DNA from: Syntrophorhabdaceae bacterium
GTDB taxonomy: Bacteria > Desulfobacterota > Syntrophorhabdia > Syntrophorhabdales > Syntrophorhabdaceae
Reading direction: 5' to 3'
Assembly: GCA_963666485.2 (NCBI GenBank)
Contig: CAXXUO010000002.1
Coordinates: 544,001 to 608,000 of the forward strand
DNA: 64,000 nt
Shown here: positions 56,297 through 56,480 of the stretch, piece by piece
How positions within the stretch are numbered: the stretch's first letter is position 1
How the letters are laid out: each line of letters opens with the position of its first letter
Made by a program: the position numbers and the translations under genes
The notes under the pieces: generated by a model
The model's input: the letters and a program-made list of their open reading frames with translations, nothing else
What the model was told of the DNA's origin: nothing
Databases searched by the model: none

Positions 56297-56480
56297 CGTG
56301 GAATATCACGAACAATCCATGATAGAAAAGAGAAAAAGGTTGCCGGTGTGGCAGGCCGTAAAAACCAGGGGATGATATCCCGTATCCAAGCTCGGGCCGC
56401 CACACCTTCTCCTTATAAACCCGGACAGTTGCAGGGGACTCGCAGGAGATCCCGCATTGCACAAGGAAGGGACACGGGAA
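56297..56480 (+). ncRNA. Predicted IS110 bridge RNA (target- and donor-binding loops)
   Basis: Guides AAAACC (56361-66) and ATCCAAG (56384-90) match the target; ACAGTTGC (56425-32) and ACAAG (56461-65) match the donor junction; each pair flanks an inner hairpin; ends estimated. Confidence 0.8.

Follow-up and report, generated by a model that had tools for sequence, protein, structure and literature searches.

We analysed a 64,000-nt stretch of DNA from a Syntrophorhabdaceae bacterium (positions 544,001 to 608,000 of contig CAXXUO010000002.1, assembly GCA_963666485.2; hereafter the window), and in particular the region around 56297-56480, which is the left end of an intact insertion sequence (IS) of the IS110 group that looks recently active. 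We consider it about 90% probable that the left non-coding end (LE) of this element encodes a bridge RNA of the IS621 type, with a target-binding and a donor-binding loop (Table 1). The original prediction, made from the sequence alone, had proposed such an RNA with four guide segments matching the element's own target and donor. The motifs it cited are present at the positions it gave or within one base of them, and its reading was right overall, although it missed the handshake bases, the split of the right donor guide (RDG) and a predicted promoter at the circle junction.

We found five integrated copies of the element in the genome, namely, four full copies (the one in the window, C3, C8 and C5) with 99.3-100% identity and with open reading frames (ORFs) and guides intact in all of them, and one truncated copy (C4). 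All five are inserted at the identical base of a repetitive extragenic palindromic (REP)-like repeat, AAAAC-CT-TGGATCCCGG. The left junction, AAAACCTT followed by GTATGA, is common to the five copies, and the right junction, CAGTTGC followed by TTGGATCCCGG, to the four full ones. Unoccupied sites have the consensus AAAACCTTGGATCCCGG. The pattern CTTGGAT[CT]CCGG (consensus AAAACCTTGGATCCCGGTGTCAAGCACCGGGATGACG) occurs at 42 sites in the genome, 4 being right junctions of the IS and 38 being unoccupied; the perfect 12-mer AAAACCTTGGAT is found at 27 unoccupied sites, every one within the repeat, against 0.45 expected, and the right-flank repeat gives more than 50 short matches across the genome. 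On insertion, the empty site AAAACCTTGGAT becomes AAAACCTT[IS]TTGGAT, with CT at both ends and no other target duplication. The sole sequence common to the empty site, the left junction and the right junction is CTTG; we take CT as the core, because of this overlap, because almost every locus of the relatives has CT followed by TGTAT at its left boundary, and because this follows the convention for IS621. The target is accordingly (G/A)(C/A)AAAAC-CT-TGGAT, and the donor at the circle junction ACAGTTG-CT-TGTAT. The element has a long LE (212 nt) that holds the predicted RNA and a short right end (RE, 31 nt), which is the layout described for the IS110 group, whose bridge RNA lies in the longer of the two ends, the LE (PMC11208160); in the same account, bridge RNAs are predicted in 85.7% of the catalogued IS110 elements.

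All four matches between the putative guides and the DNA around them were recovered as originally claimed. AAAACC at 56361-66 equals the left flank at 56276-81, ATCCAAG at 56384-90 is the reverse complement of CTTGGAT at 57462-68, ACAGTTGC at 56425-32 occurs again at the right IS end (57455-62), and ACAAG at 56461-65 is the reverse complement of CTTGT at 56281-85. These two identities and two reverse complements stand in the expected order and polarity. When we shuffled the 211-nt left end by mononucleotides, none of 50,000 shuffles held all four k-mers together, the fractions holding a single one being 0.003 for ACAGTTGC, 0.016 for ATCCAAG, 0.10 for AAAACC and 0.34 for ACAAG. At its full length, the left target guide (LTG) matches the target at all 7 bases in the C4 and C5 copies and at 6 of them in the window copy. 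Furthermore, the first handshake base of each loop can pair with the base at position 7 in the DNA bound by the other loop, but not with the one in its own DNA (C56391 with donor G7, G56466 with target C7), as in IS621, where the published rule is that these bases pair with position 7 of the non-cognate DNA (PMC11208158).

The covariation of guides with targets among homologues, whose absence the original prediction had named as one result that would refute it, turned out to be strong. Using a profile of 27 proteins, we collected 80 genomic loci with 48-83% identity, the closest of which is in a Syntrophorhabdus metagenome-assembled genome (MAG), and the others in Nitrospirota, Dehalococcoidia, Methylomirabilota, Gemmatimonadota and further groups; a protein search gave at least 8000 matches, the best non-self ones among the matches listed being 88% identical and from metagenomes. 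We left out five loci without the donor-loop anchor motif (L024, L027, L082, L083 and L092) and two at contig ends (L031 and L054), leaving 73 usable loci with 66 distinct RNA regions, which together with the window make 67 aligned left ends. The left donor guide (LDG) recurs 20-140 nt past the recombinase gene without mismatch in 55 of the 73 loci, with one mismatch in 14 and with two or more in 4. Where the LDG is a variant one (ACGGTTG, ACAGTCG, ACAGCTG or ACAGGTG), its positions 1-7 are mirrored at the right end in 16 of 19 loci, the exceptions being L080, where they are not mirrored, and L074 and L097, which could not be placed. For the right target guide (RTG), taking one row per distinct RNA plus the window and dropping five rows with the right end unplaced or at a contig end and two with a short aligned window, the match to the right flank averages 4.5 of 5 non-core positions (n=60) versus 1.5 when permuted (maximum 2.03; 0 of 5000 permutations as high). 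The LTG, with nine rows lacking a placed left boundary dropped and a single register used, matches the left flank at 3.95 of 6 non-core positions (n=58) versus 2.17 when permuted, and again no permutation in 5000 was as high. The handshake bases behave likewise: that of the target loop faces donor position 7 as C:G in 61 cases, U:G in 2 and G:G in 1 (63 of 64 pairable including wobble), and that of the donor loop faces target position 7 as G:C in 49 cases, G:T in 4, A:T in 3 and C:G in 1 (57 of 57 pairable including wobble).

We wrote the structure of the RNA from the window sequence and counted its pairs on a MAFFT alignment of the 67 left ends. The stems are paired in 91.9% of the cells. Shuffling the columns lowers this to 80.6% (0 of 500 shuffles as high), and sliding the partner by 1-3 columns lowers it to 35-46%. 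Since the structure was drawn from one member, some advantage over the slid versions is to be expected, and the compensatory counts are the stronger evidence: 19 of the 26 pairs show changes on both sides. For the outer stem of the target loop, both-side changes occur in 10 of 11 pairs and 93% of the cells are paired; helices 3 and 4, those of the donor loop, are 99% and 93% paired, with both-side changes in 5 of the 7 inner pairs. The 5' arm of the target-loop outer stem is where it had been predicted, at 56345-52, and only its 3' arm had been placed one base off (56398-405 instead of 56399-406). The inner hairpin predicted for the donor loop, GGGACTCGCAGGAGATCCC, is present. The 4-bp hairpin proposed for the 5' end, CGTGGAATATCACG (56297-310), exists as well, but is probably superseded by a longer, alternative helix of 6 bp (CGUGGA/UCCAUG, -5.2 kcal/mol, versus -3.9 kcal/mol for CGUG/CACG), which is kept in the closest relative, L018, and, as judged by eye, also in a published sibling of the element (see below). 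At 184 nt, the predicted RNA has the expected length of about 185 nt, and the order and polarity of its guides follow the published IS621 scheme.

The recombinase gene that follows encodes both domains of the family, with PF01548 matched at residues 6-147 (E 2e-26, 93.1 bits against a cut-off of 29) and PF02371 at residues 189-272 (E 4.7e-19). By phmmer over residues 5-302, its only relatives of solved structure are the bridge recombinases ISCro4 (9t56, E 4e-38) and IS621 (8wt6, E 1.8e-35). D9, E53, D95, D98 and S233, the last of them within RDSG, are invariant across the 27 relatives and correspond to D11, E60, D102, D105 and S241 of IS621, as mapped by eye with the help of the phmmer alignment. 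Genes of this kind carry the RefSeq product name 'IS110 family RNA-guided transposase'.

Table 1. Features of the IS110-group element and of its predicted bridge RNA, in window coordinates.
Feature	Position	Strand	Basis or remark
Left target (LT), positions 1-7 of the 14-nt target, GCAAAAC in the window copy; A-rich 5' foot of the REP-like repeat	56274-56280	+	AAAACCTT in 5/5 copies
IS110-group element including both CT cores	56281-57463	+	
Left core dinucleotide CT	56281-56282	+	junctions and empty site
LE (212 nt), encoding the predicted bridge RNA	56283-56494	+	between core and recombinase ATG
-10 box TATGAT of predicted junction promoter	56285-56290	+	17 nt after the RE TTGACA once the ends join; promoter complete only in the excised circle
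Predicted bridge RNA, about 184 nt	56297-56480	+	5' end placed from distance to -10 box, 3' end from last helix
5' stem-loop, CGUGGA (56297-302)/UCCAUG (56316-321)	56297-56321	+	predicted energy, relatives
Target-binding loop module	56345-56406	+	stem covariation, architecture of IS621 nt 34-98
Target-loop outer stem, GGTGTGGC/GCCACACC	56345-52/56399-406	+	
Target loop: bulged A; GGC/GCC; CGU linker	A56353; 56354-56/56396-98; 56357-59		
LTG AAAAACC	56360-56366	+	target top-strand positions 2-8; then linker A56367-G56368
Target-loop inner hairpin, GGGATGATATCCC	56369-81	+	then GU 56382-83
RTG AUCCAAG: CAAG core part (4 nt) plus AUC extension (3 nt)	56384-56390	+	reverse complement of target 8-14, CTTGGAT
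Target-loop handshake CU	56391-56392	+	C56391 can pair donor G7, not target C7
Donor-binding loop module	56410-56479	+	stem covariation, IS621 nt 110-177
Donor-loop outer stem, CCC/GGG, then GG linker; possibly also UCCU/GGGA	56420-22/56469-71; 56410-13/56476-79		
LDG ACAGUUGC, 8 nt	56425-56432	+	last 7 RE bases plus first core base; then linker AG
Donor-loop inner hairpin, GGGACTCGCAGGAGATCCC, with bulged A56449	56435-53	+	then GC 56454-55
RDG, split: AU (56456-57), bulge UGC, ACAAG (56461-65)	56456-56465	+	pairs donor 8-14, CTTGT+AT
Donor-loop handshake GA	56466-56467	+	G56466 can pair target C7, not donor G7
Recombinase gene (311 aa plus stop), DEDD RuvC-like and Tnp domains	56495-57430	+	PF01548, PF02371
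RE (31 nt), holding the left donor ACAGTTG (57455-61)	57431-57461	+	
-35 box TTGACA of predicted junction promoter	57443-57448	+	read from sequence
Right core dinucleotide CT	57462-57463	+	
Right target TGGAT and rest of REP-like repeat: hairpin CCCGGTG-TCAAG-CACCGGG, then ATGACGG	57464-57494	+	

A promoter scan of the integrated copy found no promoter-like site upstream of the RNA. The putative -35 and -10 boxes listed in Table 1 lie at opposite ends of the element, and TTGA is present at the equivalent place of the right end in 53 of 69 relatives. This split layout, as far as it can be read from the letters, matches the life cycle of IS621, whose promoter is described as split between the right and left ends (PMC11208160, PMC11208158). 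By homology with IS621, we infer a cycle in which the element would excise as a circle, and the joining of RE and LE would create the donor site ACAGTTG-CT-TGTAT and assemble a sigma-70 promoter (TTGACA, 17-nt spacer, TATGAT) from which the bridge RNA would be transcribed. The RNA would bind the 311-aa DEDD/Ser recombinase. Its donor-binding loop would hold the circle junction, with the LDG ACAGUUGC pairing with the bottom strand and the split RDG (AU..ACAAG) with the top strand, and its target-binding loop would hold the 5' foot of the REP-like repeat, (A)AAAAC-CT-TGGAT, with the LTG pairing with the target's bottom strand and the RTG with its top strand. The handshake bases would assist the exchange of strands at the CT core, presumably by the chemistry of IS621, and this exchange would insert the element without further duplication. 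A recombinase working in this way may also be programmable.

In the published descriptions, the IS621 RNA is 177 nt long and consists of a 5' stem-loop, a target loop and a donor loop (PMC11208160, PMC11208158). Its target loop comprises the linker C47-U49, the LTG at 50-58, a hairpin, G72-U73, the RTG at 77-80 with a possible extension at 74-76 and handshake bases at 81-82, and its donor loop the LDG at 123-130, the linker A131-U132, a hairpin, G155-U156, the RDG at 157-158/162-165 and handshake bases at 166-167 (PMC11208158). As far as these accounts go, the element in the window resembles IS621 in belonging to the IS110 group, in carrying the RNA in the LE, in its CT core, its REP-type target and its predicted split promoter, in the order of 5' stem-loop, target loop and donor loop, in the CGU linker before the LTG, in the bulged A in outer and inner stems, in the GU or GC after the inner hairpins, in an 8-nt LDG that extends over the first core base only and is followed by A, and in the split RDG (A157-U158/C162-G165 in IS621). 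The likeness of the donor to that of IS621, which the original prediction had noted, was borne out by the supplement of PMC11208160, the IS621 donor ACAGTATCTTGTAT and the window donor ACAGTTGCTTGTAT being identical at 12 of 14 positions. On the other hand, judged against the same sources, the protein is distantly related to that of IS621 (the phmmer match given above) and 15 residues shorter (311 versus 326 aa, the latter counted from the supplement); the LTG with its linker is one base shorter (10 nt from CCG to the inner hairpin versus 11) and skips the second core base, whereas the IS621 LTG covers both; the natural RTG is 7 nt long, whereas that of IS621 has 4 nt and reaches 7 nt only by engineering (PMC11208160, PMC11208158); the 5' stem-loop is shorter; the RDG bulge has 3 nt versus 2; a canonical A-T replaces G.T at donor position 12; and the target is AAAAC-CT-TGGAT. 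These small differences deserve mention for the mining of orthologues but do not make the element a new variant of the mechanism.

The class had been called known, and beyond this the subfamily of the element is itself already represented, as a close sibling with the same RTG is among the covariation input of Durrant et al. 2024 (Supplementary Data 1, PMC11208160). In the row concerned, this sibling shares with the window element the donor (..CACAGTTGCTTGTATGATACTCCCC..), the target-loop scaffold (GGTGTGGCAGGCCGT...), the RTG ATCCAAG and the donor-loop scaffold; its LTG is ACAAACCGA versus AAAAACCAG in the window element, its LDG ACAGCTGC, and the hairpin loops differ. The row is an input to the covariation analysis that carries neither a name nor an experiment in that table, and the window element itself may also be in this input beyond the rows listed. 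Our literature search for Syntrophorhabdus together with IS110 found no paper, so the element appears to be undescribed by name. The best-scoring solved relative, ISCro4 (PDB 9t56), has the same two-domain recombinase and is a distant orthologue, likened here by the protein alone. IS1111-group elements with a 3' seekRNA, reported by Siddiquee et al. in 2024, are said to use a recombinase of the same family and an element-encoded RNA that reads both target and donor. In that group, according to PMC11208160, the RNA lies in the right end and the subterminal inverted repeats are longer, whereas here the RNA lies in the left end. ISCro4 is associated with the orthologue screen of Perry et al. (bioRxiv 10.1101/2025.05.14.653916). 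ISPpu9 (PMC12288879) and ISPpu10 (bioRxiv 10.64898/2026.03.19.712850) of Pseudomonas putida are described as multi-copy IS110-family elements inserted at one position of a REP, as here, in another host and with other sequences, ISPpu9 having a small RNA downstream of the transposase.

Several results weigh against a bridge RNA at this locus. At the second core base, the LTG does not match (A stands opposite T), and the window copy has a further mismatch at the first LTG base (A versus C). Across the family, its match to the flank is weaker than that of the RTG (0.26-0.93 per position), partly because the register shifts by one base between relatives. Folded without constraints by ViennaRNA, the left end is unremarkable (z = -1.38); the target-loop stems appear in this fold, but the published topology is incomplete. 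Single-sequence folding energy is a poor test here. A search of Rfam 15 over 56000-57800 with E up to 10 gave three matches, all below the gathering threshold and none to a bridge-RNA family; we dismissed them as one sub-threshold match to sX15 on the opposite strand and two chance matches to miRNAs. We compared the predicted RNA with that of IS621 by eye, using the supplement of the paper, without a scored alignment. Finally, circle junctions, transcripts and empty-site reads were not seen in the runs searched. Matches in two metatranscriptome contig sets lie only in the flanking repeats (57461-57600), the contigs with the best match, possibly from the source sample, reproduce only the assembled state, and a raw-read DNA run with the same species label placed no read on the stretch. 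As these data consist of contigs and a zero-read run, little can be concluded from the absence of junctions.

The lack of an observed transcript in these runs would also accord with an explanation in which the guide-like repeats act as DNA only, with the copies of ACAGTTGC serving as subterminal repeats bound by the recombinase and the flank matches reflecting DNA-DNA homology, and with no guide RNA; indeed, the match of the LDG to the left donor is formally a direct DNA repeat. However, the both-side changes in 19 of the 26 helix pairs argue for selection on RNA (or single-strand) structure and not on duplex DNA, the mixed polarity of the matches, two reverse complements and two identities, is exactly that of the IS621 RNA, and the IS621 RNA was reported to be necessary and sufficient in vitro (PMC11208160). 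We hold this explanation to be highly improbable. That the structured LE is mainly a 5' untranslated region (UTR) for translation or stability of the recombinase mRNA, with the guide-like matches secondary, is extremely improbable in our view: such a role would leave the covariation of the loops with outside DNA and with the right end unexplained, and although in the minimum-free-energy fold the 5'-most part of the LE is paired with the region directly before the ATG, this long-range pairing with the same partners is missing from the centroid structure. The promoter scan did give a weak promoter-like site at 56469-56496, and a regulatory role would in any case be compatible with a guide role.

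A bridge-RNA IS could also have ceased to move in this host, being silent or cryptically defective, so that the guide matches are a fossil of past insertions. One of the five copies is truncated, and neither a circle junction nor a polymorphic empty site was seen in the runs searched, which says little in data made up of contigs and a zero-read run. The near identity of the four full copies (99.3-100%) with their intact ORFs and guides, the conserved catalytic residues and the 27 perfect targets that are still unoccupied speak against such a loss, which we consider quite unlikely. Our preferred reading remains that the LE of an intact element encodes an IS621-type bridge RNA. A more far-reaching version of it, which we put forward as a doubtful speculation, is that this subfamily, which is found in Syntrophorhabdus-like and many other uncultured anaerobes, is a naturally compact, high-specificity bridge variant, the C4 copy possibly providing a free-standing guide in trans. 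Such a variant is suggested by the 311-aa recombinase, the minimal 5' stem-loop, the built-in 7-nt RTG, the left guides of both loops, which skip the second core base, and a target at the foot of the REP hairpin. The structure of this hairpin might add a second layer of recognition; recognition of hairpin structure has been proposed for ISPpu10, according to its preprint (bioRxiv 10.64898/2026.03.19.712850).

We made a number of further observations on the element, its relatives and its surroundings. The truncated fifth copy (G000:C4:148764-149178) consists of the left junction, the complete LE and about 190 bp of the recombinase gene, followed by unrelated repeat-rich DNA; all its guides are intact, the loop of its donor-loop hairpin is slightly different and longer, and a single T-to-C change precedes the donor loop. 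Judging from its sequence, it is a solo copy of the predicted bridge RNA without a recombinase. The window contains two unoccupied members of the REP-like repeat family (32358-32400 and 42473-42515), whose left parts before TTGGAT, AGAACC and AAGACC, are each one base off the LTG-matched AAAACC. Imperfect 7-nt tandem repeats of the GCCGTTA/GCCGTTC type follow directly after the REP-like hairpin at 57525-57625, and short repeats such as GCCTTAC and GCCGTTA also trail further members of this family at other places in the genome. Upstream of the element, a gene for a CDP-alcohol phosphatidyltransferase (PF01066, 1.3e-38) lies at 55684-56268 on the same strand, with its end 12 nt upstream of the left core and 28 nt upstream of the predicted bridge-RNA start; read-through from it could transcribe the integrated LE without the junction promoter.

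Among the relatives, we tried to derive the left boundary from a fully canonical RDG (GCAAG to CTTGC) and rejected this, as it was wrong in most loci; the donor remains CTTGTAT, with the G opposite a T, an arrangement also found in IS621. A blastn search of the element against 5,426 E. coli genomes returned only recombinase patches of 95-123 bp with 71-77% identity, and loci L016 and L017 turned out to be other IS110 elements, which we left aside. In a Dehalococcoidia MAG (L033:1-1500), two occurrences of the left-boundary motif, CT followed by TGTATCTTGGTTATTGTGTGT, precede the bridge RNA at a distance of 66 nt from each other, and the start of the left end thus looks locally duplicated. The Rfam match to sX15 (RF02234), which at 30.1 bits (E 0.013) stays below the gathering threshold of 55, lies on the minus strand at 56336-56456 and spans the target loop and part of the donor loop. 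As described in PMC3300014, sX15 and asX7 are complementary plasmid-borne small RNAs of Xanthomonas, with 10 homologues in Stenotrophomonas maltophilia K279a; the match suggests that the locus of this pair may be where an IS110-type element encodes its bridge RNA, in which case asX7 would lie on the guide strand.

Both mechanism and class, first described in 2024, are already published, and the element is a clean new example and not a new kind of system; it leaves the known mechanism unchanged. What it adds is a cleanly delimited orthologue of the bridge recombinases from an anaerobe lineage, with five insertion sites and 27 perfect free targets, in which all guide segments including the handshake bases can be read from the sequence, and, with its relatives, 67 left ends on which the published covariation of guide with target, guide with donor and handshake bases is replicated independently. 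For those who build tools, it is a further candidate of small size whose RTG is naturally 7 nt long. For biology, it is a further IS110 element that lives on a REP-like repeat family of its host.

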